Assembly (NCBI GenBank): GCA_041746575.1 | Contig: JBGTGT010000046.1 | Coordinates: 1 to 64,000 of the forward strand | Reading direction: 5' to 3' | Source of the DNA: Microcystaceae cyanobacterium | Lineage (GTDB): Bacteria; Cyanobacteriota; Cyanobacteriia; Cyanobacteriales; Microcystaceae | Length of the DNA stretch: 64,000 nt | In this document: one piece after another, positions 4,292 through 24,114 of the stretch | Position numbering within the stretch: position 1 is the first letter of the stretch | How the letters are laid out: every line of letters begins with the position of its first letter | Translations under genes and position numbers: made by a program | The notes under the pieces: model-generated | Databases searched by the model: none | Told to the model about the DNA's origin: nothing | What the model saw: only the letters and a program-made list of their open reading frames with translations

Positions 4292-5163
4292 TTTTCTTGA
4301 ACCTCATTAACAACAAGTCTCTATCTTACCACTCTGGAGTCGCTCAACTTTGATGAGGATTAGTCGTTTCGGGAGGGAAATCTCAATCGCATCTCATGGT
4401 TGAACTGAAATTTTCTCCCGCAGTCTCCTCCTAAAAGTACTGGAAAATATTGACATTTTAGGTGGGGTTAGGGAGAACTAAAGTAAAAAGTGCAGCAACA
4501 TGATAGTAGCATAATATTGGTACAGCCAAGCGAAATTTCATGGAGGCACGACCACTTACCGCAATTATTGATGTTAGGAATTGCTAGTTTTTCTGGGGTT
4601 TCCGTAAACAAAAGTTTTTACGACTCACTGAGGACGCCAGTATATCTAGAAACGCTTAGAAGTCTTTTGGTTCTAACGCGTAAGAATCCTCAACTATAAT
4701 CGCAAGAATAGGTTGGTGGTGTGTTTAATCTGAAAAATTGCCGACTGAAAATCAACCTCAACAATGGTTTCAAGATTATTTTTAATTACAACAAGATAAT
4801 TTTAATTAACTCCATCTCGGTTCTGATGCAGAAGCCATCCACCTTTCTGTAACCCAAGCAGATTATAACCGGCTCATAGGGTCGTTTAAGGTGTTTTTGA
4901 CCCGACTTTGAAACGAGAGTTGTTTACCCAGTGACCAAATAAAATAGCGATCGCTTGGCTAATGCGCCAGCAATATTGTCAGCAATTGTTTCTATTCAAT
5001 TAATTTCTCTATAAAAAAGAGAAAACGTGGCTATGGAGGAAGAACAAAGGATTTATCCCAAGTTTTGTTTCCATTCAATTAATTTCTCTACAGAAAAGAG
5101 AAGTCCTAGTTGTGTGCTCATTGTTATCTCCTAACTTGTGTGAATCATGCCGTACTAGATCGA

Positions 5164-5511
5164 TCAAGACAGTGGTGGGTCAGTCCGATGATTCGCTTGA
5201 TGTTCCAGTTTTCCAATCGTGTGCTCGATCAAGTGGGTTAATTTCTCCGCCGCCCCGTCAACGGCTTGGTCTAAGGTGGCTGCCTGATGGGTTACCGCAA
5301 GGGGTTGGACTCCTTTGAGACGGGCTTCGATCATGCAACGCATATCTTCCTCGCCGCCCTTTTTGTCGCTGTTCTCATCGCTCAGGTGCACATCAACGTT
5401 AGTGAGGCGATCGCTAAATCGGCTTAGGCTCTCTGCCACGACACCAGTAAAATGGGTGGCCAGTGCTTCGTGACCTTCGATGTTATGACCAGTATTGATT
5501 TGGATTTGCAT
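5164..5511 (-). CDS. HPF/RaiA-family ribosome-associated protein (ribosomal subunit interface protein), located inside the CRISPR array
   Basis: MQIQINTGHNIEG..RFSDRLTNVDVHLSDEN..DMRCMIEARLKG..AVTHQAATLDQAVDGAAEKL; RBS AAGGA upstream; ORF intact (115 aa). Confidence 0.85.
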   Translation of the reverse strand: MQIQINTGHNIEGHEALATHFTGVVAESLSRFSDRLTNVDVHLSDENSDKKGGEEDMRCMIEARLKGVQPLAVTHQAATLDQAVDGAAEKLTHLIEHTIGKLEHQANHRTDPPLS

Positions 5512-5583
5512 GGTAATTTCCTTTTGTAATTGTGATTGACTCAACTTGAATCAACGGCGATCGCCGGATCTGTCTTAGCCCTG

Positions 5584-6192
5584 TTACAGAAACGCCTTAA
5601 CCACCGCGTCAAATTTCACCTTGATGGAGTCGTCATGGTGCAGGATGGGTGGAATCTCTCGCTCGATGCCCAGCAGTTCGTAGACTTTCTTTGATTCTTC
5701 TACTATAACCAATTATCTAACACGTGGAATCTCTCGCTCGATGCCCAGCAGTTCGTAGACTGCCATTTGGGCAACCCGGACGGAATATTCCACCGTAAAA
5801 ACCACATCATCAGGGATTTCGACAAACTGGCTAATAAAGGCGAGATTCTTAGAGTTCTTGGGTACGGGCAGCGGGCGATCGCCGTGGGCGCGGGGCATAA
5901 ACATGCTGGTGATGTAGGGCATTCGGCAGGGAATACAGATAGCAGAGGCGATCGCCGATTGATCAAAATTGAGATGACCGCATAGTTCTTGCAGAATCTC
6001 AAGACCGTTGCAATCAGTCATGGATTTGGGTACGAAGTCACCAATGCGATCGGGGTGTAGAGCATAGCCCCAAAACACTTGCACATCGGCAGGTTGGTTG
6101 AGGTAGTGGGGTTGATGGGCTAACACGATTGACATCATCCAATTGGAATCCTTGAACGTCACCAAACCGCCAGTGCCAGCCTTATTCCCAGA
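5584..6192 (-). pseudogene. oleate hydratase (myosin-cross-reactive antigen family) 3' fragment, truncated by a CRISPR repeat and interrupted by an insertion
   Basis: SGNKAGTGGLVTFKDSNW, MPYITSMFMPR..GDRP, NLAFISQFVE..DVVFTVEYSVR. The native C-terminus PPILHHDDSIKVKFDAVVKAFL* resumes after the duplication. Confidence 0.85.
5649..5761. repeat. 38-bp perfect direct duplication flanking a 37-bp AT-rich insert
   Basis: GTGGAATCTCTCGCTCGATGCCCAGCAGTTCGTAGACT at 5649-5686 and 5724-5761; insert TTCTTTGATTCTTCTACTATAACCAATTATCTAACAC at 5687-5723. Confidence 0.95.
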
Positions 6193-8095
6193 GTTTCCAT
6201 TCAATTAATTTCTCTACAGAAAAGAGAAATATCTTTCTGTTGCAGAAAAAGCCGAATTAAACAGAGTTTCCATTCAATTAATTTCTCTACAGAAAAGAGA
6301 ACGATTTCTGTTATCAACCCCTAAAAGAGTTAAACCTTTTTGGGTTTCCATTCAATTAATTTCTCTACAGAAAAGAGAACCATGAGAAAACTACTGAAAG
6401 ATGTAAAAAGGTTCAACCAGTTTCCATTCAATTAATTTCTCTACAGAAAAGAGAATTAATATCTTCAAGGCTTTCGTGCCACCCAGTAGTCGCGTTTCCA
6501 TTCAATTAATTTCTCTACAGAAAAGAGAACTGAAGAGTTAATCGTTAAACTCGCTAAAGATAACAGTTTCCATTCAATTAATTTCTCTACAGAAAAGAGA
6601 ACATCAATATCCGTTTGCATCTTGAACGGGACAAGATCATTTTCGGTTTCCATTCAATTAATTTCTCTACAGAAAAGAGAAAAGCATTGAACCGCGGCGC
6701 GATTGGCAATGACTTCGTTTCCATTCAATTAATTTCTCTACAGAAAAGGGAAGCATTTCTCAAGAAATCGCCCCTGAACAAAGTGATTGTTTCCATTCAA
6801 TTAATTTCTCTACAGAAAAGAGAAGATTCTTTAAAACCTTCGTTCCAACCAATTACTAATGTGTTTCCATTCAATTAATTTCTCTACAGAAAAGAGAAGA
6901 GCGAATGCTCGTAGATGTTTTAACCGGCGAAATCATCCTTGTTTCCATTCAATTAATTTCTCTACAGAAAAGAGAAAACCACTACAAAAAAGTTCCCACA
7001 GATAATCGCACAAGTTTCCATTCAATTAATTTCTCTACAGAAAAGAGAAAATTCCTGTCCGCTCATCAGCCATCTGCCAGAGTTGAAAGACGTTTCCATT
7101 CAATTAATTTCTCTACAGAAAAGAGAACCTATAAGGATAAAGCCTCTGGCGAAGCGCGGCATAAATTGAAGTTTCCATTCAATTAATTTCTCTACAGAAA
7201 AGAGAAAGCCCAGAGGCGCTTATTCTACTTCCAATTATCAGGAAGTTTCCATTCAATTAATTTCTCTACAGAAAAGAGAATCTTGAGATAATTGTAACCC
7301 TTCAATCTGATCTTTTGGTTTCCATTCAATTAATTTCTCTACAGAAAAGAGAATCGTACGATAACGGTTGTTATGGGCTTGGGCATCCTCAAAAGTTTCC
7401 ATTCAATTAATTTCTCTACAGAAAAGAGAACTATTTTGCCCTGGAGTTTTAACCAGTTATTTGAGCCTTGTTTCCATTCAATTAATTTCTCTACAGAAAA
7501 GAGAATTCCTAGGAGTCCCAATTTACTCAGAAGGGGAGATCGAGTTTCCATTCAATTAATTTCTCTACAGAAAAGAGAATTTTCGGACTAGATGCGAGTC
7601 AGTGGGGGCAAAGATTACAAGTTTCCATTCAATTAATTTCTCTACAGAAAAGAGAAAATTTGGTGCTTAAAATACTAGCCCCATTTTTATTAAGTTTCCA
7701 TTCAATTAATTTCTCTACAGAAAAGAGAATAAGAATTTCCGTCTTGGGCAGGCTCTTGAATCAAGTTTCCATTCAATTAATTTCTCTACAGAAAAGAGAA
7801 TTAACGAATATTCCAACAGAATTCACCCCGTCAGATCGTTTCCATTCAATTAATTTCTCTACAGAAAAGAGAATCTTCGAAGGGATTAAAAATTCCCCAT
7901 TCGATAGGGGGGTGTTTCCATTCAATTAATTTCTCTACAGAAAAGAGAAGATTTCATCTACAAAGCCCAGCTGCGCTTAGTAAAGTGTTTCCATTCAATT
8001 AATTTCTCTACAGAAAAGAGAATTAAAAATCAAAATAGGGGGCTAGTATTGATTTGCACGTTTCCATTCAATTAATTTCTCTACAGAAAAGAGAA

Positions 8096-8278
8096 GGTCG
8101 TTCACAGACCCCTGATGTAGTCAAACTTCCAAAAGGGGTTTGCGAGGGATAGAAATATTGTAGCTCTAAATTGCCAAAAACGACTCGATAAAAACACTGA
8201 AACCTTTGCTCTATCTAAAATCGAGGGATAGAACGAGATAATAGGAATCATCGTCATTGAATTTGAGCCTCGCAAAAT
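8096..8278 (-). promoter_or_regulatory. CRISPR leader
   Basis: Non-coding stretch between the cas2 stop and the first perfect repeat; contains repeated CGAGGGATAGAA motifs. Confidence 0.8.
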
Positions 8279-8563
8279 TCAGATAATAATAAACGTAGGA
8301 GGCTGAGTAAGCGGTGGATTGCCCCATATATCTACTTGGGATAAAGTATGACCGGAAATAGGATAAAAACGTAAACTGTCTTCTCCTTCCCTAAAAATGC
8401 GCTTTAGGCGTTTTTGTAGCTCATCATATTTTTTCTTCGCTAACATACACTCAAAGACTGAATATTGTACCCTTGTGCCGTAGCCTTCCAAAACATCAGA
8501 AATCCGTTTACGCCGTTTATCGCAGGGAATATCATAAGCAATAACATAGAGCAACATAATCAA
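8279..8563 (-). CDS. cas2: CRISPR-associated endoribonuclease Cas2
   Basis: YVIAYDI...RVQYSVFEC...DSLRFY. Confidence 0.97.
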   Translation of the reverse strand: MIMLLYVIAYDIPCDKRRKRISDVLEGYGTRVQYSVFECMLAKKKYDELQKRLKRIFREGEDSLRFYPISGHTLSQVDIWGNPPLTQPPTFIII

Positions 8564-9555
8564 CGAATTTGATGAGGCTGATAACCTGAAATCGGATGAT
8601 AAACAAAATTCCTATATTTTCGGACTTGCTGACCTAAAACATCCCATCGGAGTCTTTTTTGTTCATCTTCCCCCTTGATTTCTTCCTCCATACGATTCAT
8701 AAAGCTTTGGAGATATTTCTTCCGTCCTGAATTACTTAAGAAACATCCTCCCTCTCGATAATCAAAATCCTCATCGGCTTTGATGACTCCGCGATTGACA
8801 AGATACAAAACCAGAGAATCCACTATTGGCGCACGAAACTCCTCAATCAAATCAGATGCTAAAGCTGCATGACGCTCTGAGCCTTCGTGAAGACAAGCTT
8901 GGTAGGGATCTAAGCCTGAAACTTCAATTAAAGCCAGTAAATGATTCCATAATACTTGATAACCAAAACTTAACAACGCATTGACCGGATTGCGAGGAGG
9001 ACGACGAGAACGAGTGAGAAAAACAAAGTCTGAGTTAGTCAAACAGTCTCCAAAGGCAGAAAAATAAGATGATGCACCCGCCCCCTCAAACCCCAATAAT
9101 CGCTCATGATTTTCAGCATCCTTGGCTTTAGTACAGAGATAATCTAAAGTTTTCAAGGATAACTCTATCTGATTCGCTTCGGTGCGCCGTAATTGTCTTT
9201 GCAGAATCACCTTACAATTTTTTAGCTTGCCATAAACCATATTTCTAGCCGTGATTAGTCGTTCAACTCGACTAAGTTGCTGTTGATAGCGAGATAACTG
9301 ACGATAACCCCGTTCAATCGACATAATACGTCCGTAACAATATCCCATACGAGATAAATAAACGATAGGAACATCTTGCTTTAAACAGGCGTGTATCGCT
9401 TGGGTTGTTATCTGCGATTTGCCAAAAATGAGAATTTGTTCCAATAATGGCAACTGAACGGATGATAATAGCTCATCTTGCCGTTTTACCAGTAATGTTT
9501 CCTTTTGCAAAGAGACATAACATCCTTGTTGCGACACGTATAAACTTAAAACCAT
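8560..9555 (-). CDS. cas1: CRISPR-associated integrase Cas1
   Basis: GFEGAGASSYF, RSRRPPRNPVNALLSFGY, LASDLIEEFRAPIVD; ORF intact. Confidence 0.97.
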   Translation of the reverse strand: MVLSLYVSQQGCYVSLQKETLLVKRQDELLSSVQLPLLEQILIFGKSQITTQAIHACLKQDVPIVYLSRMGYCYGRIMSIERGYRQLSRYQQQLSRVERLITARNMVYGKLKNCKVILQRQLRRTEANQIELSLKTLDYLCTKAKDAENHERLLGFEGAGASSYFSAFGDCLTNSDFVFLTRSRRPPRNPVNALLSFGYQVLWNHLLALIEVSGLDPYQACLHEGSERHAALASDLIEEFRAPIVDSLVLYLVNRGVIKADEDFDYREGGCFLSNSGRKKYLQSFMNRMEEEIKGEDEQKRLRWDVLGQQVRKYRNFVYHPISGYQPHQIR

Positions 9556-9765
9556 TCACTCTAATCGATTCAAGGTACATACTGCCATAAGGACAAAATA
9601 AAACCCTGTTCCCACCAAAAACGTCGCTAGACTAACAAAAATCGTATTACTAATAACAGCCACTAAACCTAATGGCGCAATTAGAAGTAATATAAGTGTT
9701 ATTAACCCATTGACCAAAGCCATCGCTATATTTCGCACAAAAGCTGCTTTTATTGATAAATACAT
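9556..9765 (-). CDS. csx18: CRISPR-associated membrane protein Csx18
   Basis: VNGLITLILLLIAPLGLVAVISNT motif and position immediately upstream of cas1; may be C-terminally shortened. Confidence 0.75.
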   Translation of the reverse strand: MYLSIKAAFVRNIAMALVNGLITLILLLIAPLGLVAVISNTIFVSLATFLVGTGFYFVLMAVCTLNRLE

Positions 9766-9938
9766 AAAAAACGTTCCTCTTCATTTCGCTTTCCTCTAAC
9801 CTATCTTTCTCTGGTTGGAATATCTCGAAAAAGCCAATATTAAGCGATTTGACTGATATGACTCTACAAGACTTATTTGTCAACTTTTTGAGTCAAAGAT
9901 GGGTAGATTAAAAATATATTGTTTTTCCCTTGACAATT

Positions 9939-11144
9939 ATGAGGAAAGCCCTTGATTCCCATCCTTACAGCGAAAGAATCGCATTTGAACGATTAATGTT
10001 GCTGATTGCCACCTTAGTAAGATATCCGGGCATCGGTTATCTTAATTGGGAGGATAATCAATATCACTCTTCTTCAGAACACCACAACGCCTTAGAAGAA
10101 CTACAGCAATATTTACACAAGTTAGCCAGTGAAATCGGTTATTATTTGCCTAAAAACTACCCTTCCGCCCCCACTTTAAGAAAAGACCTCGAAAATTTAC
10201 GGAATTTCCACATTTTAGAGCGTCGTATGTACCGTTGGGGCTATTATTTAGGAACTGGCGTGATGAGTCCAGACCAATTAAAAGCCGCTTTTAATGCCCT
10301 ACAATCTCAGGCGATTTATCAAGGAGATCCCCGCATTCGACAAACTTATCAAGAATTAGCCAAAAGATTACGAGGATATGAGCTAAAAACGTCCCAAGAT
10401 TTCTTTTATCCCGTTAGGCAACACCTGAACCGTGCTATTAATTATACCGATCCGATGGAAATGATGGAAAAGGGAGAATATCGTAACACCCTTTATCATC
10501 ATATTGAGACTATTGAAACAGCGATTATTGACGGGCAAATGTTAGAAATCTCTCGACATACGAATTATTATGACCATCAACGACTGGGAACGGTTTTAAT
10601 TTTTCCCTTACAACTAATTTATTACGATATTGCTTGGTATTTACTTTATGAAACTTGCGCTTATCATCATTTTGCGATTGGGCGGATGAACCGTTTCAGT
10701 GATTATTGTCAAGTGCATCCCGTCACTAGAGGCATTTACGCACAGCAAGAAGGCTTAAAATCTGCCTATCAGCTGTTAAATAATGGATGGGGCTTAAAAT
10801 TGGGAGATCCTGCTGAACAAGCACCAGAATTATCGGGAGAATTAGACTTTGTTCCGATTAAAGTCCGATTTTATCCGCCTGTCAGTGATTTTATTGCAGA
10901 AGGAGAACGTCGCCATCCAAAACAACACATCCGCAAGGGAAAACGGGATTCTGCAACAGGAAAACCGCAATATATTGACTATCTAATTGATTTGCCCCCT
11001 CGTTCCCTCGATGAGTTCAGTATTTGGGTACAACGCTACGGCGACAAAGCACAAGTTTTATGCCCTTCTAAATTAGTAGAAAAGCATGAAAAAATCGCTC
11101 AAAATTTGGTAAGACTGTATTCACGAATCCCTAAAACAAGTTAA
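9939..11144 (+). CDS. WYL-domain transcriptional regulator
   Basis: N-terminal HTH-like TLRKDLENL; PLQLIYYDIAWYLL; WCX-like tail (AQVLCPSKLV). Confidence 0.9.
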   Translation: MRKALDSHPYSERIAFERLMLLIATLVRYPGIGYLNWEDNQYHSSSEHHNALEELQQYLHKLASEIGYYLPKNYPSAPTLRKDLENLRNFHILERRMYRWGYYLGTGVMSPDQLKAAFNALQSQAIYQGDPRIRQTYQELAKRLRGYELKTSQDFFYPVRQHLNRAINYTDPMEMMEKGEYRNTLYHHIETIETAIIDGQMLEISRHTNYYDHQRLGTVLIFPLQLIYYDIAWYLLYETCAYHHFAIGRMNRFSDYCQVHPVTRGIYAQQEGLKSAYQLLNNGWGLKLGDPAEQAPELSGELDFVPIKVRFYPPVSDFIAEGERRHPKQHIRKGKRDSATGKPQYIDYLIDLPPRSLDEFSIWVQRYGDKAQVLCPSKLVEKHEKIAQNLVRLYSRIPKTS

Positions 11145-11366
11145 AGCTTTCTTTTCAATTTTGTGGGATAGAAAGCGATCGCACGTCACTCTAAAACTCT
11201 GATAAAGAAAATAATTACTTAACATAGATTAACAAACTTAAAAGTCATGCCACATAAGCATTACAGACCTTTGTCTAAATTAATTTACAATATTGTTAAT
11301 TTCTGGCCTTGACTGGGGAATATTGATTACAGTTGAAATTGAATTCGGAACAAGGACAGATTAACC

Positions 11367-14362
11367 GTGACAACAGCTTACTGGCAAGCCAAAATCTGGG
11401 GATTACTCCATGATCCCGCACTTAAAGCTTTACACAATAATTCAGGTAGAGGCGGAAATAGCTTTTGGCAAGACTTAGCAGTAATGGCGCAATGGAAGGA
11501 AAAAGGCTGGAATCCTGAAAAATCGGGTAAGACAATCTTAAAACACATTAAACGTGCTGACTATATTACCTCAGCGAGCGATCGCAGCGCAATCGGCAGT
11601 CTTTCTACCAGCGTTAACTATAATCAGGAAAAAGGATTAGAAATTTCTCACTTACTTTCAGGAGAAAAACTAACCCTTAAGTTAAAACAACATGATGAAC
11701 TGATTCAAAATCGTCTTGAATTTTTAACCCATAAAGAAAATCAATTATTAAACTTAATTCCTCCTAATAATACTGACCGAACTCCCACAGAAACTGAAGA
11801 AATTAAGAGAATTTTCTGGTGGTTATGGCGATGCCTTCCTGAAGCGACTTTTCAAGCTTTTGATAATGACTCATCTTTATTATTAATGCCAGCAGAAACC
11901 CGCTTTCCCGATGCGTCTTTGTGGAGTCATGTCAGTTTAACAGCAGCAATGGCAGGTGCATTAGCAGGATACAATTTAACCCCAGAAGATATTGAAAAAA
12001 ACTGGAAAGCAAACAAGCCTTTATCCCACGCTTATCTCACAAGTTTTACCTTTAGTCCTATTCAAGAATTGATTAAAGCCAGTCGCAAAATGAGAGACTT
12101 ATGGGCAGGATCTTGGATTTTACATTATCTTTCTGCCAAAGTATCATGGAAATTAGCAAATATTTATGGTGCAGATTGCTTAATCTATCCTAATCTTTAT
12201 AATCAACCCTTAATTGACCATTGGTTACTGCAAGAATATCCCGAATTTAGCCAATGGATACCCCAACCCACAGAAAAAGCTTTACTTACTGCTGGATTTC
12301 CCAATGTTTTAATTTTAGTACTTCCTAAAGATAAAGTACAAGCAGCCATGCAAACTGCTAAAAGTACTCTCATTGAAGAATGGTTAAAAATTGGAAAATT
12401 GGTCTTTGAAGAATTACACGATAAAAGATACTGGATGAAAGGCTTATCGTTTGACCATAAAACATGGAAAGAATGGTTAAAATCTCAATGGCAAGTCTAT
12501 TGGACGGCGGTACCTATTGGGGTAGATGATTATGATCAAAATAATCAAAAAATTCCTTTAACCAGTAGTGAAATTTATCGAGAAGATAGCCAAACTTGGG
12601 AAAATAATCCCGAAAAAGATACCAGTTGGCGAAATCGTCAAAATCAAGCCTATGGATTAAATAAACAAAACGCACTCTTTCTCGAAAATGAATTAGAATT
12701 TCTACAAAAAGCGGCTAAATTACGACAAAAAAGACGAGGTATAAATGCCCCCAACACCAACATTGGTTCATGGTGGAATCATATCTTTGACCAAACTCGT
12801 TTAGCTTTAACATCTATTAAGAATGGCAGATGTTGGGAACTTCCCACTGCATTTAGTACCCGTTCAACTATATCAGGAATCGGTTCAGTTGTGCATCCTG
12901 ATAATGATTGGATTTCTGAGGGAAAAACGAAAGATTTATGGAAGTATCATGCAGGATTATTTGATGGTAAAGAACAACTAAATGCAACGGAAAGCGTTAA
13001 AAGGGGTTTACATTTAATCTTACCTCAACTACTAGGTTTAGATAATGATAAAATAGAAATTACTTATCCCGATTTAACGTCGGGAGTTGCAGGATATCTC
13101 CATCAAGGAAATGAAGAAGACTTAGACTATTTTTATACAACTTGTCAAGCTGTTGTTCGCAAATATAAACAAGATAATCAAAAAATTCCTGATGAAATTA
13201 CTGAAAAATGGGGTATTCCTTGGGCGGATAATCATGAGGATTTAAGAGTGAGAAAATCCCATCCTCGTCTTCTTAATGCAGGTTGGTTGATAGAAGATTT
13301 AGAAACTGAATCATTCTCCACATATCGAGAAGAATTAAGAACTTTTATTGACTCTTATTATCCTCAAAATAACCCGACAAATTGGTATGTTCTTGCTGTT
13401 GGAGATGGAGACGGAATGAGTGAGTGGTTAAAAGGAACAAAAATGAAACCTTATCGAGATTATTTACCAGATGCGTTGGTCATTGACTCAGAACTTCAAG
13501 AAAGTTTTGCTAAATTTCAAGACTTACAAAAACGGATGGGGCCTTCTACCCATAATGCTTTAAGTCGTGCGTTACTTGATTTCTCTAATCAACTTGTTCC
13601 CTATTTAACTGAAGAAAGATATGCAGGACGCTTAATTTATAGCGGAGGTGATGACGTTTTAGCCTATACGAATCTTTGGGAATGGGATAACTGGTTATGG
13701 GATATTCGTCAATGTTTCAAAGGAGATAAAGATCCAAAAAATGAATTTACCGAAGAAGGAAACTATTGGAAATCTGATCAATTTTCTCGTCCCTTATTTA
13801 CTATGGGAAAATATGCCACAATTAGTTTTGGAATCGTCATTGCTCATCACTTTGTTCCCTTAGCTATTGCTTTAGAAAGTTTATGGAAAGCTGAAGGTAA
13901 AGAAGAAGGTGCAAAAGGGCATAAATATCATAGTAGTTGTTCTTTAACTAATAAAAAAGAGCAATTTAATCAAAAAGATGCTGTGCAGATTCGGGTAATA
14001 TATGGCAATGGAAACATACTCAAATCTACTGCAAAATTTGAAACCTTTCATCAATGGCAAAAATTAGTTAAATTAGACTTAGAACCCAGTTTATTTGAAC
14101 AAGCCGCTAATCTTTGGGAACAACATCCTATCCCTGTTTATCAAGCGATTGAACCTTGGATAAAAGCCTTTTGTAACCGTCGAGAGCAACTGCGAAATGA
14201 TAAAAATGGAGACTTTGAAGAAGCCTTAGCAGACTTTATCAAACATCTTTGGCTAACCACACCTTCTGATGACTTAGAAAAAGAAGTAAAAAACTGGCTA
14301 AAACTAACAGCTTTTGTCAAAAGAAATCGTAAAATTCTAGACTTAAAAAAGGAGTTGAAACA

Positions 14363-14372
<10 letters not shown>
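11367..14372 (+). CDS. cmr2: type III-B Cas10/Cmr2
   Basis: LHDP, FSPIQELIKASRKMRDLWAGS, GDGDGM and YSGGDD palm motifs; ORF intact. Confidence 0.96.
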
Positions 14373-16086
<1,714 letters not shown>

Positions 16087-16089
16087 ATC

Positions 16090-17361
16090 ATGGCTAGTAT
16101 TATTTTATCCTTTGTCGGAAGTCAAGATCCTGAATCAAAGAATACGAAAGAAGAAGGTTCAATCGTAACTTTAATTCGTCATTTACTCAACCAAAAATAT
16201 CAAATCAAAAAAATTTTATTGCTTCACACTCAAGACACTTATGATAATGCTATTTTAACTCAAGAATGGTTAAAAGACTATTTACAAATAGAGACTAAAA
16301 AAGTTGAATTACTCGCCGTTTCTTCTGCTTTATCAGAAGATCCCATTGATGTTAGATTAGCTACTCAAGAAGCTAATAAAGGAGTGCAAAAAGCTCAAAA
16401 TTATCGTGACAATAATGATATTTTTGAATTTAATTCTTCGTCAGGCACACCCTCTATGAAAACAGCTTGGGGAATTTTACAAGCTTCAGGTTACGGAAAA
16501 AATAACCGACTTTGGCAAGTGAGAAATTCTGAAAAAATGAAACAACATCAGCAACTTGTCTTTGAGAACAATGTTAATGTCTTTAAACATGAATCTGATT
16601 TAACTGTTATCAAGAAATAACTACAAAACTATAATTATGGAGGAGCGTTACAAACATTAAAAAGTAGTAATTTTGAAAGTGAGATTGCTCAAGCTTTATT
16701 AGAATATGGTTATTACCGTTTAGCTTTTGATTTTAAATTAGCTAAACAAGTTATTAGTCTTTATCAACAAGAGGTTAAATCAGAATTAGTACATAATATT
16801 GAAGAATTGTATGATGAACATATCCTAGAATTGTTACAAGAAGCTTATTACAAGGGAATTCTCAAAATCAAAACAGAACAATACGCTGATTTTTTGATCT
16901 TATTATTTTCGTTCCAAGAAAATATGCTAAAATTCTTAGTCAAACAACAACTATTAAGATCAAAGTTTAAAAAATTAGACTGGAGAAATGCAGAACATCA
17001 AATTCGTTCCAAAATAGAACAAGGAGAATTAAATCGACACCTTAAAGCCTATCGCTACAATGGACGATCATTACAATTAGAAGGGACAATCAACCGAATT
17101 ATAATGCTTGCTATTTTAGATTATTTTTCCGATCTAAAGTCAGTAACGTTATTACTTAAAAAATTGGAATCCTATTGTCAAGATAGGAATGACTTAGTTC
17201 ATGATCTTAAAGGAGTTTCTGCACTTAAAAATGAAGGAGAAATCATCAGAGCAATGTGTCAAATCATGGAATATGTAAAGCCAGATTTTGATGCAACAAA
17301 TCCCTTCAATTCACTCAATGAACAAATTCTTAATCAATTAACACCCATTGTAAGAGGTTAA
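16090..17361 (+). pseudogene. CARF-HEPN (Csm6-like) ancillary ribonuclease with in-frame TAA at 16618-16620
   Basis: SFVGSQDP and NSSSGTPSMK CARF motifs; ..KK*LQNYNYGGAL.. continues in frame; HEPN R-x4-H motif RNDLVH. Confidence 0.75.
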
Positions 17362-17366
17362 ATTAC

Positions 17367-18173
17367 ATGACTCAATCAATCAATACAGTTCATCTCTATC
17401 TTCTCTCTCCTTTACATACAGGAGGAACAACTCAAGAAGGCAATCTATTAGGAATTGCTCGTGAATCTCATACCAATTTACCTTATATTCCCTCAAGTAC
17501 CATTAGAGGAAAACTGCGATCTTCTGTATCTGATCAAACTCAACAATATAAGCTTTTTGGAAATGAATTAAATGGCAATAACTCATCAAATGATAAACTG
17601 ACTCAAGGAGATATTTGGATAGGAGATGGTTCAATTTTATGGATTCCTATTCCTTCTCTAAGTCATGGAGTTGTTTGGGTAACTTCTCCCATGTTATTAA
17701 GTCGATGGACAAGATTTAATAACTCTTCACTAACGATTCCTCCTGAATATAGCACTAATCTTAAGAATAATGTCTATCTCAAAGATGCTATTCTCAAGTC
17801 AAATACTTTACAGCAAAATTGGCAAAATTGGCAACAATTTATACCTCAAGAGCCTGCAACTAATCAAATTCAAAAGGTTATCGTCTTACCAGATCGTCAT
17901 TGTTCAACAATTATTCAAATGAGTCTCTGGCGACAAGTTAAAATTAAGCTAGATTCATCTAAATCCGTTGATGGTGGTTTTCGTTATGAAGAAGCCATTC
18001 CCCCTGATACCTTAATGTATTTTACGTGGGGAATTACGTCTCAAGCAAATGGTTCGTCAACTCAATCTAAACAGGATTTTAAAAATTTATTAGATTCTAA
18101 CTCTATCCTCCAAATTGGAGGACAAGAAAGCTTAGGACGGGGTTTTGTTCAACAATTTATACCCCAAAATTAA
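17367..18173 (+). CDS. cmr4: Cmr4 RAMP
   Basis: SPLHTGG, ARESHTNLPYIPSSTIRG, YEEAIPPDT, QIGGQESLGRG. Confidence 0.95.
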   Translation: MTQSINTVHLYLLSPLHTGGTTQEGNLLGIARESHTNLPYIPSSTIRGKLRSSVSDQTQQYKLFGNELNGNNSSNDKLTQGDIWIGDGSILWIPIPSLSHGVVWVTSPMLLSRWTRFNNSSLTIPPEYSTNLKNNVYLKDAILKSNTLQQNWQNWQQFIPQEPATNQIQKVIVLPDRHCSTIIQMSLWRQVKIKLDSSKSVDGGFRYEEAIPPDTLMYFTWGITSQANGSSTQSKQDFKNLLDSNSILQIGGQESLGRGFVQQFIPQN

Positions 18174-18186
18174 GGAGAAAATTAAA

Positions 18187-18597
18187 ATGTTTGATTCAAG
18201 AACAATTAGTAAACCAGTGTACGAAGCTTTATTTGATTTACGTTCTCAACAAGAAGCGAAGGAAAGAAATCAAGACAAGCTAAAAAATGACTTAAAAGAT
18301 CAAAAAAATCAGGCAATTGAACTTTATACTTACTTAGCAACATGGGGATTAATGCGACTAAAAGCAGAGGAAAAAGATTTAAGTCAAGAAGGAAAAAAAC
18401 AAGTAGTTAGAAAGTTTTTTACTTGCTTAGAATCTCTTTCAGGAAAATCTGCCTTAGCTAATGATCAAGGAGTCAAAACTTTAATTGCTTTAAGTCCAGA
18501 TGACTATTTAGGTTTAACAGGACTTGGCCTAGAATTGGCACAAGAATTTGCTTTTTGGGCTAATGCTGTTTATCACAATATTAAAGGAGAAGATTAA
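18187..18597 (+). CDS. cmr5: Cmr5 small subunit (Cas11)
   Basis: Small helical protein directly after cmr4; LYTYLATWGL, FAFWANA. Confidence 0.75.
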   Translation: MFDSRTISKPVYEALFDLRSQQEAKERNQDKLKNDLKDQKNQAIELYTYLATWGLMRLKAEEKDLSQEGKKQVVRKFFTCLESLSGKSALANDQGVKTLIALSPDDYLGLTGLGLELAQEFAFWANAVYHNIKGED

Positions 18598-18609
18598 ACT
18601 TTAACACTA

Positions 18610-18964
18610 ATGAAATTAGGAAAAATTGTTACTAATTTACAAATTGATCAGCGTAAATTGACGGAATATGCCCTCAATTCTGAAAACCCGAAAGGAGTTC
18701 ACAAAGCTTTTATGTTTCAACAACATCTAGGTTATACCAAAAATAATTATGAATCTCTCCTAAGACAAATTCAGGAAAAAGCTTTAGATGCAGAAGCCAT
18801 TCCCACAGACAATGATGAATATGGACAACGTTATCAAGTTGACTTAAAAATGTAGGGGAGTGAACGATCAAAAAATAGAAATAGTGAGAACAGGATGGAT
18901 TGTCAAACCCTTAAGTAAAACAGCAAGATTAGTTACACTATATCTCAAAAAAAATTATGATTGA
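18610..18964 (+). pseudogene. DUF6883-like protein, frameshifted near 18853
   Basis: KLTEYALN..NPKGVHKA.MF..LGYT, DEYGQRY; C-terminus GVNDQKIEIVRTGWIV..ARLVTLY continues in the +1 frame. Confidence 0.7.
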
Positions 18965-19283
18965 ACCTCATTTATTTGATATTGTCGAATTATTAATTGA
19001 CATCCCTGACAAGAATCTTTTTGCAGGAATGCAAGGGACAATTGTTGAACAGTATGAAACCAGAATATTTGAGATAGAATTTAGTGATAAACAAGGACAA
19101 ACTCTGGCACTCTGTACCCTTGAAAAATCAAATTTTTTTGTCGTTTGGCAATCTGCTACTAAACAATGGTTAAACCCTACTGATCAATTAATAACACTTG
19201 TTAATCATCTTTCTGAATCTCGTCAGCAAGAAGTTCTAGATTTTGCTCGATTTCTCTACAAAAGACAACAAATAACCTCTTAA
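18957..19283 (+). CDS. DUF4926-like protein with a DUF2281-like C-terminal helix
   Basis: LFDIVELLIDIP..L.AGMQGTIVE..FEIEFSDKQGQTLA; tail LSESRQQEVLDFARFL. Confidence 0.75.
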   Translation: MIEPHLFDIVELLIDIPDKNLFAGMQGTIVEQYETRIFEIEFSDKQGQTLALCTLEKSNFFVVWQSATKQWLNPTDQLITLVNHLSESRQQEVLDFARFLYKRQQITS

Positions 19284-19303
19284 ATGAATTAAGGAAATCA
19301 CTA

Positions 19304-21175
19304 ATGACTCCTAATCCTTTACAAAGACCTAAACCCCCTCGCAAGATCCAACCACAGGGAAATCAACAACGTAATCAAACGCCATCTACATCTCATCCTG
19401 CTTCAGGAGGAAATAGAGGAAATAATGGGAATAGAAATAATAATAATGGTGGCAATAATCAGCCTCCTTCTCCTTGGTTAGATGAAACCCCTTCACCTGA
19501 TTCTACTGCGAGTTTTGTTGAATATTTACGTTGGATGCGTGAACCAGATCATCCATATAAAGATGCAACTAAAGTTCAAATTCTTCAATTAGCAACAGAG
19601 AAAGCTAATTATAGGGAGCATTTAACCACCCTCAACCAACGCCTTGAATTAATGGCAGGAAAAGATAACACCTTTACTGTTAAATGTGCTTGGCGTATTA
19701 GAGTGGGAGGACATCGAGGCCCTGAAAGTATATTATTACCTGCTTTTGATGCTTTGGGAATGCCCTATATTCCTTCTTCTACTTTAAGAGGAGTTGCTAG
19801 AACTCAAGCCATTCGAGAAGTGATGGAAGATAAAGGAATTGATTGGAAAGAAGCAGAAAAAGAGCCAGAAATTGTCAAACATTTTGGTTCTTTGGAAGCA
19901 GATAAACAGGACAAAGCAGGTAAAGTTATTTTTTTTGATGCTTATCCTTTACCCAATGAACATGGCTTAGAAATGGACATGGCAAATAATATCTGGAAAT
20001 GGGAGAATAATCAACTTAAGTACGCTTCTAATCCTAATGTTTTTCTATCCCTTAAAGAACCCACTTTTAAAATTGGTTTGAAGTTAGTCAATGGACTCAA
20101 AGACCCTAAAATTTTGGAAAAGGTCAAGCAGTGGTTAATCAAAGGATTACAAACAGGGGTTGGTTCTCAGGTTAATACAGGCTATGGAGAATTTTTAATA
20201 GCAGGAAAAGAACAACCTAGCCATGAATTTTTCCGAGTTAAATTTGGCTTGGAAGGACAGTTAATTCATGGATATCAACGATTGAATCAAGGACAGACGA
20301 GAGGAAATCCAGTAGCAGAAGTACGTCCTATTGCTTTTAAATCAATGTTACGTTATTGGTTTAGGGCGTTTACTCTTGGTGTTTTAGAACCGAAAAAAGT
20401 TCAAGAACTGGAAGCTCAATTATTTGGTGGGATTGATCCTCAACAATGGGGGTGGTTGAAAGTTAATATTGAACAATGGCAATTAGATCGAAAAGAACCT
20501 AAAACTAAGGATGAAAAAGTAGGTCAAGAATCAGGCATTTTAATTTTATCCCATTCTCTTAACAGTCCTAATGATTATAAAGAATCACTTGAAAAACTTT
20601 GTAAAAATTTAACTTGGTTAATGTTTAATTTGGGAGGAGTCGGTCAAGGTGCAAGACGACCTTGTTATTCTCGAAAAAACCGTCCTAATCCTCGTCCTTT
20701 CTATCGTGGTTCAACGTTAATTGTTAAGGATGATAACCCTTTTTGGGATAGAGGCGAAACGATTCAAGAATTTAAGCCTTTATTTCAGAAAAAATTAATT
20801 ACTTTTTACCAAGCATTAGGTAGTCTAACATCTGAAAAATTGAACTATCGCAATCTTAAATCCTGTGGAAGGGTCAATCAAAGTCAATGGGAAAATGCAA
20901 TTGACAGAAACTGCAGAATTGTTGTTTGTAGTGGTCAAACAGATTTTGATAAACCCTACGCATTAGCAACACTTCATCATCGAGACTTCAAGCACAATGA
21001 TAGATATGATAGATACCTATGTGGAGAAAACGGTAAACCCTCTCCTGTTTGGATAGCAGATTTAGGTGATTTTCAAGTCGTTACTGTCTTTGGTGCAACA
21101 GAAAACCCTCGCAAAAGTTACTTAGAAAAATTACATTCTTATGCTCAAGAAATTGCTCAAATTTTCCCATTATAA
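19304..21175 (+). CDS. cmr6: Cmr6-Cmr1 fusion RAMP protein
   Basis: First RAMP: PYIPSSTLRG, VIFFDAYP, GVGSQVNTGYG. Second RAMP: EVRPIAFKSMLRYWFRA, GGVGQGARR. Low-complexity N/G/P-rich N-terminus. Confidence 0.88.
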   Translation: MTPNPLQRPKPPRKIQPQGNQQRNQTPSTSHPASGGNRGNNGNRNNNNGGNNQPPSPWLDETPSPDSTASFVEYLRWMREPDHPYKDATKVQILQLATEKANYREHLTTLNQRLELMAGKDNTFTVKCAWRIRVGGHRGPESILLPAFDALGMPYIPSSTLRGVARTQAIREVMEDKGIDWKEAEKEPEIVKHFGSLEADKQDKAGKVIFFDAYPLPNEHGLEMDMANNIWKWENNQLKYASNPNVFLSLKEPTFKIGLKLVNGLKDPKILEKVKQWLIKGLQTGVGSQVNTGYGEFLIAGKEQPSHEFFRVKFGLEGQLIHGYQRLNQGQTRGNPVAEVRPIAFKSMLRYWFRAFTLGVLEPKKVQELEAQLFGGIDPQQWGWLKVNIEQWQLDRKEPKTKDEKVGQESGILILSHSLNSPNDYKESLEKLCKNLTWLMFNLGGVGQGARRPCYSRKNRPNPRPFYRGSTLIVKDDNPFWDRGETIQEFKPLFQKKLITFYQALGSLTSEKLNYRNLKSCGRVNQSQWENAIDRNCRIVVCSGQTDFDKPYALATLHHRDFKHNDRYDRYLCGENGKPSPVWIADLGDFQVVTVFGATENPRKSYLEKLHSYAQEIAQIFPL

Positions 21176-21184
21176 ATCATCACT

Positions 21185-22654
21185 ATGTCTCGCAAAAAAT
21201 CAATTCTTATTGCTACTATTGGCACTCGAGATCTTGCTTTCCGCATCGCTGAAAACGAATGGCGTAATATTGGAAATGATCGCTCTCCAGATATAAATAC
21301 TAGAAGTGAACAAGCTCTAGTTCAAAATTATCTTGGTTTAGATAAAAGTAGTTTTCGATTGTTAACAGAATATCTGTTAGATGTTTGGTCAGATTATCAA
21401 GATTCCATTAAACCTATCATTATAGGTAAACTTCTACAAGATGAAAATCAAAACCTCAAAAAAATTTACTTAGTAGGAACTAATCAACCTGAATCAGTGG
21501 CTCAACGAGACAAAGATACTTTATACTCAGCACAACTCATTAAATTATGGATATAAAAGCATTATAAAATTTCGACAGAAATTATTAAACAAGGAGAAAG
21601 TGGAGAAAATCCATCTGATTTTGAAGTAATGTTTGCTTGGTGGAAACAAGTTTGGACAGACATTGCTCAAGAAACGAAGGAAGGTACTAAAATTATCTTA
21701 TGTATTAAAGGAGGCGTGAATCAATCTTCTGAAGCCGCCAGAATAACGGCACTTAGTCGCTTTGGAGAAGCTACTTATTTCTATGATTTTATTCAAGATG
21801 CCGACAAGAACCTTCTGGGATATCCTTCTCAATATACCAAACCCTTTCAAGGTCGAAATTATCTTTGGAATCTCAAACAAACAGAAGCCTTATCATTGTT
21901 AAGTAGATGGGATTATCCGGCTGTTCAACGGGTTTTACGTCCTTATAAAGAGAATGCTGATGAAAACGATCAAGCCATTCAAGCCATCTGGCATAAATTA
22001 GAAATGGCTATTGCGTGGAATATGGCTGACTTTGAAGCCTTTGCTAATTTACTAGATGAATCATCTCAACAAAGAACTAAAACTTGGTGGTGGACAGCTT
22101 ATGAAGCCGCATATTTAGCTGTTATCCGTTTTCAACAAGGGAACACCACAGAAGCTTTTTTCCATAGTTTTCGTGCTGTCGAAGGTTTGATGATTGAATG
22201 GGCAATTCAATATTATCATCCTCATGTTAAAGTCTCGAAAGGACAACCCCGTATTCTGAAAAGATCTATCTATAATGATTCAAAATTTCCCGAAGCTAAA
22301 GAGTGGAATAGTTATTTTGATCATAACGGTGAGCTTAAACTTTTTGGGGATAAACTTGAGCAATTATTATTTTCATCACGGTCTAAATTAGGTCGTGAAT
22401 ATCATTGGCAAGTTTTTTTTAAGACCCGTAAAAAGCGAAATCAGATATTCCATAGACTTTACAAATTAGATAGACAAGAATTATTTCAAGCTTGGAATGC
22501 CGAGACACAGAGAGCTTGGCAAGATAAAATTTTAGCCTATCTCAATGATTTATCTTCTCCTACTTCTCTAAGCCTAAGTCTTGAGTCTTCAAGCTTGATG
22601 TCTAGCATTCACAAAGCTCTTGAAGTAGAAATTCAAGAATATGGCTTTCATTAA
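21185..22654 (+). pseudogene. second CARF-HEPN-like ancillary nuclease with in-frame TAA at 21554-21556
   Basis: ILIATIGTRD, KDT, NPSDFE and CIKGG CARF-like motifs; ..LWI*KHYKI.. continues in frame; FRAVEGL and HEPN-like RNQIFH. Confidence 0.7.
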
Positions 22655-22938: not shown

Positions 22939-24114
22939 ATGAGCATTTTGACCCGAACGGTTTTCGGATTGTTCCGCTTAAAGAAATTTGGATATTTAGG
23001 GTTTTTATCCGGATTATTATGGCTCTTGTGGCTACTTCCCGTTGAAGCAAAAGAATTGAGGATTGCTATCCTCAAAGGCACCAATCTCGTGAAGGTTGGA
23101 AGTTCTACCCCAGCGATTGTCAAGGATGGATCAGGTCGCAAAATTGGAGAATTAACCCCAATGGACGGCATTTCTGCCACCGCCAACGGCAAAGGGGTTG
23201 CCCTCAAACAATTGAAAAGCAGTCAACTGACTATTGAACCAACAGAGAATGGAGTGGTCTGGATTAATGACCGTTGGTATCGAGGTCGAACTCGTTTAAT
23301 TCGCCAAGAAAGTGGGGTAACTGCCCTGAATTTAGTAGATTTAGAAGAATATCTTTATAGTGTGGTTGGGGCGGAGTCCATTCCCAGTTGGCCTCTAGAA
23401 GCGTTAAAAGCTCAAGCAGTGGCAGCGCGTACCTATGCCCTTTATAAAATTGCCAAATCCGCTAATCGTTACTATGATTTGGATACCACTACCAAGACTC
23501 AAGTTTATAAAGGCTTAAATTCAGAAGCTCTAAGTACCCACGAGGCAGTTAATAGCACCGTAGGCGAAGTCATAACCTATAATGGTCAAATCATTCTATC
23601 GGTCTTTCATTCTTCGTCAGGGGGTCACACAGAAAACGTTGAAGATATTTGGTCATCCCCTTTGCCCTATCTACGGGGAGTGGTCGATTATGATCAGTTT
23701 GCACCGGTTTTCCAGTGGACCAAAACCTTTACTGCTAATCAGCTAAGTCAAGCGATCGGAGGCATTGGCACGATTCGTTCCTTTATTCCCGAAAGAACCA
23801 CTCCTCACGGTCGGATTGTTACGATGAAAGTGGTAGGAACAGGAGGGTCAAAGCGAGTGAATGGCACCCAACTACGAGAGGCATTAGATTTAAGAAGTAC
23901 CCTTTTTTCGGTTGCCAATGTCAACGGCATTTTTCAAGTAAATGGACGAGGTTATGGTCATGGCATCGGCTTAAGTCAGTGGGGAACCTATTCTTTGGCC
24001 GAACAGGGAATCAGTTATGACCAAATCTTGACCCATTATTATCAGAATTCCAGTTTGTCTCCTCTAACAGCTTTAGAATCAACACCGTCCTTATCTGCTA
24101 AATCGGGTGAATGA
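22939..24114 (+). CDS. SpoIID/LytB-domain peptidoglycan hydrolase
   Basis: LEEYLYSVVGAE, EALKAQAVAARTYA, GYGHGIGLSQWG. Confidence 0.93.
   Translation: MSILTRTVFGLFRLKKFGYLGFLSGLLWLLWLLPVEAKELRIAILKGTNLVKVGSSTPAIVKDGSGRKIGELTPMDGISATANGKGVALKQLKSSQLTIEPTENGVVWINDRWYRGRTRLIRQESGVTALNLVDLEEYLYSVVGAESIPSWPLEALKAQAVAARTYALYKIAKSANRYYDLDTTTKTQVYKGLNSEALSTHEAVNSTVGEVITYNGQIILSVFHSSSGGHTENVEDIWSSPLPYLRGVVDYDQFAPVFQWTKTFTANQLSQAIGGIGTIRSFIPERTTPHGRIVTMKVVGTGGSKRVNGTQLREALDLRSTLFSVANVNGIFQVNGRGYGHGIGLSQWGTYSLAEQGISYDQILTHYYQNSSLSPLTALESTPSLSAKSGE

Follow-up and report, generated by a model that had tools for sequence, protein, structure and literature searches.

Introduction

Adaptation in CRISPR systems is taught as a measured cut-and-paste of ~30-45 bp of DNA, in which Cas1-Cas2 attacks the borders of a repeat and gap repair completes the insertion. 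Here we describe a CRISPR array from a Microcystaceae cyanobacterium (assembly GCA_041746575.1; 4.2 Mb in 134 contigs) in which one of the inter-repeat segments is a block of 1,090 bp of foreign cyanobacterial chromosome. The array lies in a stretch of 64,000 nucleotides (positions 1 to 64,000 of contig JBGTGT010000046.1), referred to below as the window, and the metagenome runs that match the assembly are of hot-spring origin. The block, which we call the giant spacer, was picked out in a first-pass annotation made from the DNA letters alone, the claims of which were followed up here.

The giant spacer resembles the product of canonical Cas1-Cas2 acquisition in that complete, exact repeats flank a foreign insert, and a cas1-cas2 module and a conserved leader are present. 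It differs in its length (1,090 bp, probably 1,015 bp originally, compared with 35-44 nt) and in spanning three genes, one of which is intact. Off-target (‘neo-CRISPR’) spacer integration by Cas1-Cas2 is said to have been described by Nivala, Shipman and Church in 2018, and a smaller unit nested in the giant spacer (5649-5761) is similar to it, with repeat-sized DNA that is not a repeat (38 vs 36 bp) duplicated around a spacer-sized insert of 37 nt, but sits in the giant spacer of a type III-Bv array and not in the Escherichia coli chromosome. Recombination between a spacer and its protospacer, reportedly seen by Varble et al. in 2019 as a single crossover with a phage, could likewise fuse an array with donor DNA where its spacers begin or end, although in the present case two co-linear spacers and a double crossover would be required, and no intermediate is seen.

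Long stretches between two repeats are also produced by insertion sequences (IS), miniature inverted-repeat transposable elements (MITEs) and Tn7-like elements (accessible parts of PMC4524480 and PMC11837452), but these lie inside a spacer or a repeat and come with inverted ends, duplications or transposition genes, none of which the block has. In casposons a casposase homologous to Cas1 inserts kilobase DNA with a target-site duplication (accessible part of PMC6452270); these elements carry inverted repeats, a polymerase and a casposase of their own, whereas the block was cut from a chromosome at arbitrary points and it is the CRISPR repeat that has been duplicated as the target. In its gene content the locus resembles CRISPR3 of Synechocystis sp. 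PCC 6803, a type III-Bv system which, according to the accessible part of PMC12464536, combines csx18-cas1-cas2 with a cmr set, has no cas6, and has its repeat cleaved by RNase E and the 3′ end of the guide trimmed. The repeats of both systems, compared by eye, have a 5′ stem-loop and an AU-rich tail ending GGAAAC. The two differ in that the accessible part of PMC12464536 makes no mention of long spacers, and in that cmr3 and csm6 are split only in the locus described here.

A piece of cyanobacterial chromosome in spacer position

The 36-bp repeat is present in 28 copies at 4988-8095, all on the plus strand of one contig and none elsewhere in the assembly. Twenty-six of the copies are perfect, one has a single mismatch (6717-6752) and one has three (4988-5023). 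Between them lie 26 ordinary spacers, each of 35-44 nt, whilst the 27th inter-repeat segment is the giant spacer. The first-pass annotation had placed the block between perfect repeats, one ending at 5102 and the other starting at 6193, with 25 ordinary spacers acquired later, and both the borders and the count are correct. Two further ‘arrays’ called by our custom script (C71 and C92) were set aside as plain tandem repeats, and the script called no other array in the genome.

Parts of three donor genes make up the block (Table 1), with all of the coding sequence on the minus strand and hence sense to the array transcript. An oleate hydratase (MCRA) frame, noted in the first-pass annotation by its residues SGNKAGTGG, opens at the first base past the repeat (6192) and, once the nested 75-bp unit is removed, has 177 open codons up to its own stop. 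This part is 94% identical to its Nodularia counterpart in amino acids and 90% in DNA, and the host has no other MCRA gene. It is followed by an intact HPF/YfiA-like gene, the product of which aligns over its full length with a Nodularia protein at 89% amino acid identity and has no second copy in the host; against the NCBIfam yfiA model it scores 29.3 bits, under the model cut-off of 40.9. Of a third gene only the first 19 nt remain, with a ribosome-binding site upstream and the codons for MSTQLG severed by the repeat as first described; the homologue in a related genome (G072) runs on as MSTQLGLWIDH... for 134 aa, with no Pfam family. Both ends of the block thus lie inside donor genes, as had been claimed.

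The GC content of the block is 49.8% compared with 40.3% for the genome, in which 0.8% of 4,147 1-kb windows reach 49%, and the density of GCGATCGC is 3.67 per kb compared with 0.42 (~nine-fold). The block matches only itself in the genome and, judged by its GC content, its GCGATCGC density, its single copy and the lack of host paralogues, it is foreign to the host. Its gene order is also that found naturally in Nodularia harveyana UHCC-0300, where MCRA ends 55 bp before the HPF-like gene, and this co-linearity identifies the block as a single continuous piece of cyanobacterial chromosome, cut within genes at both ends.

DNA searches with the block returned matches in 5 of 41 genomes of relatives and, across the phylum, in 25 of 401 (host counted in both), all at 85% identity or less. 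When all species genomes were scanned with the HPF-like protein, the best amino acid identity was 89%, without a near-identical donor genome. A 24-mer of the block found nothing in the JGI metagenome contigs, the closest plasmid match was 76% identical, and there was no phage match. Within the block, Rfam returned no family, Pfam matches of the frames were confined to MCRA and S30AE with no recombinase, transposase or tns gene, and a simple consensus scan of the minus strand found no promoter-like or terminator-like site.

Exact borders without marks of a mobile element

By BLAST, homology to the Nodularia and Spirulina loci begins exactly at 6192, and homology to genome G072 begins at 5103. 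Perfect repeats abut the block on both sides with no extra bases, spacer remnant or target duplication, and terminal inverted and direct repeats of the block are at chance level (the observed scores were reached by 1630 and 758 of 2000 shuffles), in keeping with the first-pass statement that neither a spacer, nor filler, nor a transposon end stands at the junctions. An origin as a transposable element (IS, MITE or Tn7-like) was rejected on the lack of inverted ends, a duplication, spacer halves and transposition genes and on the single copy; a casposon was likewise rejected, the block having no inverted repeats of its own, no casposase and no family B polymerase. Such marks are evident in related arrays that do carry mobile elements. 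In L141 a 1,493-bp insertion sequence lies within a spacer, leaving spacer halves of 29 and 12 nt, with a 3-bp duplication and 15-nt inverted ends, and in L125 two small MITE-like elements (6340-6553 and 7761-7905) lie within repeats, with short inverted ends and a TA duplication (both read by eye).

Homology between donor and repeat at the breakpoints had been named in advance as a sign of recombination in place of integrase activity, and none was found: alignments of the donor-type flanks to the repeat score no better than those of shuffled sequences (scores reached by 2556 and 4407 of 5000), and a contig that continues past one breakpoint as donor-type DNA (run X4, below) contains no repeat. 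An 8-nt stretch in a donor flank that agrees with the first bases of the repeat in all but one position was rejected as a cause, being 4 nt out of register in an alignment at shuffle level. Read on the minus strand, both breakpoints just precede T-N-T-G-G (TCTGGG in the block and TGTGGA in a relative's flank, the donor-type flanks being those of L010 and L033), a likeness that may be due to chance, the left flank having been taken from an 80%-identical relative.

A unit with a spacer-sized insert nested in the block

Within the oleate hydratase gene a stretch of 38 bp is exactly duplicated around an AT-rich insert, and the resulting 75-bp unit is missing from all four homologous loci compared (G417, L028, L033 and L034). 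The original fragment would therefore have been 1,015 bp and not 1,090 bp; the first-pass size of 1,090 bp is right for the block as it stands, but the nested unit had been overlooked. A 97-nt Logan contig over the insert (5657-5753) is present in all four metagenome runs at host depth. A source for the 37-nt insert was sought in the genome, in 203 fetched loci and, as an exact 37-mer, among viral contigs, without a match. The duplicated stretch, a pseudo-repeat, has no significant likeness to the true repeat (a score reached by 1327 of 5000 shuffles).

Two-copy direct repeats of 30-45 bp in the genome number six with inserts of 28-55 nt, four with inserts of 56-83 nt and two with inserts of 84-111 nt. 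The six comprise the nested unit itself, two clean cases on contigs C28 and C127, an ambiguous case on C117, and two (C73 and C86) that by eye look like ordinary tandem repeats, leaving the two clean cases as further candidate off-target units. At C28:59068-59176 an exact 36-bp duplication surrounds a 37-nt insert, and at C127:7345-7453 an exact 37-bp duplication surrounds a 35-nt insert; in both cases relatives align only outside the unit. From its sizes and its absence in the homologous loci, we consider it probable that the nested unit is an off-target spacer integration.

Support from metagenome contigs

The assembly was compared with Logan contigs (k=31) from four hot-spring metagenome runs of one study (X1-X4), which may be the assembly's own source and so are a check on the assembler, not on the sample. 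A 605-nt contig over the left junction (5074-5678) is present in all four runs, and a contig over the right junction (5732-6221/6222) in three of the four. These junction contigs extend 29-30 nt into the repeat, the maximum for a k=31 graph across a multi-copy repeat. Block contig depths follow those of the flanking chromosome over a roughly ten-fold range, from ~34 down to ~3: the flank and the two block contigs stand at 33.6, 39.7 and 35.6 in X1, at 24.5, 32.2 and 31.9 in X2, and at 11.9, 12 and 18.7 in X3. In several runs the block contigs are somewhat deeper than the flank (e.g. 32 vs 24.5 in X2), and this extra depth would fit a low-abundance donor-type organism with identical 31-mers in samples beyond X4.

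A contig of run X4 is identical to the block over 6119-6192 and then continues for 55 letters that are not repeat, of which 30 match the flank of the Spirulina MCRA gene at 29 of 30 positions with the reading frame continued (by eye). Since this contig crosses the breakpoint as plain oleate hydratase sequence, an uninterrupted donor-type gene coexists with the host. The first-pass call to look for an uninterrupted donor locus was therefore answered in part, by a donor-type contig in X4 but not by a near-identical donor genome.

Long segments in related csx18-linked arrays

Of 401 genomes of the order, host included, 109 have Csx18, and regions of up to 14 kb downstream were fetched for 100 of ~125 Csx18 places, omitting those near contig ends and the weakest matches. 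Arrays were found in 64 of the 100 regions by a custom script, not a validated CRISPR finder, and 51 arrays in 50 loci with a full-length family repeat were counted (2,046 segments), 17 arrays being dropped for a consensus that was incomplete or unlike the family. Segment lengths fell under 30 nt in 5 cases, at 30-46 nt in 1,973, at 47-60 nt in 51, at 61-89 nt in 5, at 90-130 nt in 1 and over 130 nt in 11. The 12 longest comprise one hidden degenerate repeat, two runs of N, the L141 insertion sequence, two multi-gene inserts (4.5 and 9.4 kb), three segments before a last repeat (506, 565 and 964 bp) and three exact segments (184, 282 and 283 bp), the last having full repeats on both sides and no repeat remnant inside. 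The screen for long inter-repeat segments that the first-pass annotation had proposed thus returned three exact cases in 51 arrays, and exact long units recur in the csx18-linked array family.

The 282-bp segment (L173:3970-4251) is open from end to end and, at 85% identity, corresponds to residues 37-130 of 379-aa proteins of uncharacterised function. Its complete genome has no second copy, and by these matches it is another internal gene fragment in spacer position. It lies antisense to the array transcript, in the orientation needed by a type III guide. The other two exact segments stand in one 15-repeat array, L142, at 11722-12004 (283 bp) and 12268-12451 (184 bp); both are unique in their genome and have no Pfam match, and the longer contains a complete 70-aa frame with a hydrophobic stretch, sense to the array.

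Among the longer inserts, a conserved element of ~0.5 kb lies between the last two repeats of L138 (7146-7651) and L158 (5244-5808), two genomes of different families; the copies are 75% identical and single-copy, with no Rfam match. The 4.5-kb insert of L167 (5169-9698) lies between two full repeats and has defence-type cargo by look, with genes for an HTH-STAND NTPase with TPR repeats, a 23S-rRNA-intervening-sequence-type protein and a Uma2 nuclease.

The array and its cas locus

The array is read on the minus strand, since cas2, cas1 and csx18 lie on that strand at 8279-9765, the leftmost, distal copy of the repeat is the degenerate one, the minus-strand repeat reads by eye as a 6-bp stem-loop first and then an AU-rich tail ending GGAAAC, and the motif CCTCGCAAACC stands 42 nt ahead of the first repeat. 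The identical motif is found 41 nt from the first repeat in two related-repeat arrays, L142 and L147, which have repeat and leader, but not spacers, in common. With csx18-cas1-cas2 beside cmr effector genes the locus is, from its gene content, of type III-Bv. It is without cas4 and cas6 at the locus, no cas6 family match being found among 24 different frames scanned at 8279-22654 and no cas4 among the frames scanned there. The effector operon looks worn: cmr3 is in two frames (14914-15456 and 15499-16086), the CARF (16090-16620) and HEPN (16807-17361) parts of the csm6-like gene stand in separate frames, and a Uma2-family nuclease gene (14363-14911) lies between cmr2 and cmr3.

Comparison of the spacers with the donor-like loci, which cover a few kb, gave nothing beyond 15-nt chance matches, including for both spacers adjacent to the block. 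A 41-nt spacer (7354-7394) is 100% identical to positions 23551-23591 of host contig C28, which is host-like at 41% GC, and is a self-target or else matches an integrated element. The repeat, at up to three mismatches, occurs in none of 88 other genomes of the family and none of 400 other genomes of the order, and a 28-mer of it has no match in the JGI metagenome contigs; the comparison of orthologous arrays proposed in the first-pass annotation accordingly found none in these collections.

Table 1. Positions of the giant spacer, the array and the associated cas genes in the window
Feature	Position	Strand	Details
R28, terminal trailer-end degenerate repeat	4988..5023	-	3 mismatches to consensus; end distal to cas2 and leader
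Oldest ordinary spacer	5024..5066	-	43 nt; unmatched elsewhere in genome or in donor-like loci
R27, left border of block	5067..5102	-	Perfect repeat; junction crossed by Logan contig 5074-5678 (4/4 runs)
Giant spacer	5103..6192	-	1,090 bp; foreign cyanobacterial chromosome fragment, 1,015 bp plus nested 75-bp unit
Third donor gene, first 19 nt	5103..5121	-	MSTQLG, severed by repeat; ATG 5121-5119; ribosome-binding site AGGAGA 5127-5132
HPF/YfiA-like gene, intact	5164..5511	-	115 aa; Pfam Ribosomal_S30AE, E 4.6e-9
Oleate hydratase (MCRA), 3′ part	5584..6192	-	Pfam MCRA positions 347-495 of 495, E 3e-70
Duplication copy 1 (pseudo-repeat)	5649..5686		38 bp, exact; within oleate hydratase gene
AT-rich insert	5687..5723		37 nt, 27% GC; spacer-sized
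Duplication copy 2	5724..5761		38 bp; own 38-nt Logan contig at ~2x depth of neighbours
R26, right border of block	6193..6228	-	Perfect repeat; Logan contig 5732-6222 (3/4 runs)
Remaining array	6229..8095	-	25 more repeats; 25 ordinary spacers of 35-44 nt
Leader	8096..8278	-	CCTCGCAAACC at 8138-8148, minus strand, 42 nt from first repeat
cas2	8279-8563	-	Pfam Cas2, E 1.7e-23
cas1	8560-9555	-	Pfam Cas1, E 1.9e-87
csx18	9556-9765	-	NCBIfam Csx18, 76.7 bits (cut-off 50)
Type III-B (Cmr) effector genes	11367..21175	+	cas10/cmr2, cmr3 (two frames), csm6-like (two frames), cmr4, cmr6-like

Discussion

The account we favour, and hold with about even confidence, is that Cas1-Cas2 integrated the whole fragment untrimmed. 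The Cas1-Cas2 of this cas4-less III-Bv module would have joined both 3′ ends of a linear fragment of ~1,015 bp, derived from a co-resident cyanobacterium, to the two borders of what was then the leader-proximal repeat; gap repair would have duplicated the repeat, leaving the whole fragment in place of a spacer of ~38 nt, and 25 normal acquisitions would have followed. The joining would be a single event, carried out either by one complex with the DNA looped or by two complexes each performing a half-site attack. At some point a normal prespacer would have been integrated off-target within the block, duplicating 38 bp around the 37-nt insert, and we infer that this nested event shows the same kind of enzyme acting on block DNA. 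An integrase is favoured because the 36-bp target is exactly duplicated, as expected of staggered attack at both repeat borders with gap repair, and because the chance that random insertion would reach both borders is very small. Taken together, the locus suggests the known adaptation reaction acting on a substrate of a length without precedent in the literature we found.

The transposase-like integrase event of the first-pass annotation is thus borne out in its geometry and in the foreign nature of the DNA, although one-step integration and a double crossover are indistinguishable by sequence. Its description as an ‘old event’ holds only in a relative sense: the HPF-like gene is intact, the MCRA frame is undamaged apart from the 75-bp unit, and 74 nt are identical to a co-resident donor-type contig.

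Several points weigh against the favoured account. Structural work gives Cas1-Cas2 a ruler of ~23 bp, which argues against one complex holding 1 kb. A double crossover with two earlier spacers would predict the identical sequence. The lengths in the related arrays leave a gap at 86-184 nt, bar one hidden-repeat case, so that a loose ruler with a long tail does not by itself explain the long class, which may have arisen differently. The genome-wide count of units of the nested type is not clearly above background, and the donor may be where the nested unit arose. At both junctions the contigs stop 1-2 letters under the 31-letter bridging rule. Our literature search found no account of Cas1-Cas2 inserting kilobase DNA in vivo and no kilobase non-transposon spacer with exact repeat borders, although the supplementary tables of PMC4524480 might list non-transposon cases; according to the accessible part of that paper, most spacers of 100 nt or more resemble transposons.

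The strongest alternative is a spacer-guided double crossover, in which two co-linear spacers were acquired from the ends of a ~1-kb fragment and a donor copy then recombined with both, so that spacer-repeat-spacer was replaced by continuous donor DNA and exact repeat borders were left. Such a course predicts the observed sequence exactly; the presence in the community of donor-type DNA identical over at least 74 nt makes repeated exposure plausible, and the 86-184 nt gap would fit a separate mechanism for the long class. It demands several rare steps, however, with adjacent spacers from the same source in the right order and orientation and only ~40 bp of homology per side, and the two long segments in L142 would require the full series of steps twice. 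No intermediate is seen, in that none of the loose contig ends listed passes from block to repeat at a point ~40 nt inside either end, and the spacers adjacent to the block do not match the donor-like loci, which cover only a few kb. On balance we think a double crossover somewhat unlikely.

Alternatively, the block could have arrived by recombination with foreign DNA that already held it between the same repeats, or by way of an unknown element or recombinase acting at repeat borders. Related arrays do hold cargo other than spacers (the L167 insert of 4.5 kb and the L138/L158 element of ~0.5 kb), but such routes shift the question to an earlier host. As the repeat was found in no other genome searched, a donor carrying a repeat-flanked block has no support, and in X4 the donor-type gene continues unbroken past the breakpoint. 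The block itself lacks a recombinase gene, inverted repeats and a target duplication and is an arbitrary cut through three ordinary genes, with a best plasmid match of 76% and no phage match, and we regard routes of this kind as unlikely. An assembly or binning artefact, with reads of a second cyanobacterium of ~50% GC threaded through the array, would suit an assembly of 134 contigs matched by hot-spring metagenome runs, a donor-type organism in at least X4 and the somewhat deeper block contigs, but is highly improbable given repeat-to-block contigs on the left in four of four runs and on the right in three of four, depths that track the host, and donor-type flanks unlike the repeat, a chimera needing k-mers common to donor and repeat at both breakpoints.

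Whatever its origin, the block should be traversed by transcription that starts at the leader; the simple scan saw no terminator-like site. If maturation proceeds as in Synechocystis, the first ~35 nt past the repeat handle would give a guide of ordinary size, and because 3′-trimmed III-Bv guides would still form from the start of the block, the long unit could persist at little cost to the array. That guide is probably useless for RNA-targeting immunity, since it would be sense to the donor oleate hydratase mRNA. The HPF-like gene, being sense on the precursor CRISPR RNA with a ribosome-binding site of its own, could be expressed.

More broadly, and only tentatively, the cas4-less csx18-cas1-cas2 modules of cyanobacterial III-Bv systems may be low-frequency, length-unconstrained integrases, similar to transposases, that paste in whole linear pieces of 0.2-1 kb with duplication of the repeat and also hit non-repeat DNA, their arrays serving as gene-capture sites from which captured genes are transcribed by the array promoter. 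The case is a testable one, with a donor-type gene in the same community, a probable nested off-target event, further exact long segments in the family and a genetically tractable model relative in Synechocystis CRISPR3. It also has a practical side, as spacer catalogues and array finders with a length cap discard such units or split arrays at them. If integration of the whole fragment is the correct account, control over spacer length would be fallible or dispensable in vivo, present-day Cas1-Cas2 would be tied to its transposase ancestry, and arrays would be a possible route of horizontal gene capture; if the wider proposal also holds, these modules would be a present-day reminder of the beginnings of CRISPR adaptation in casposons.

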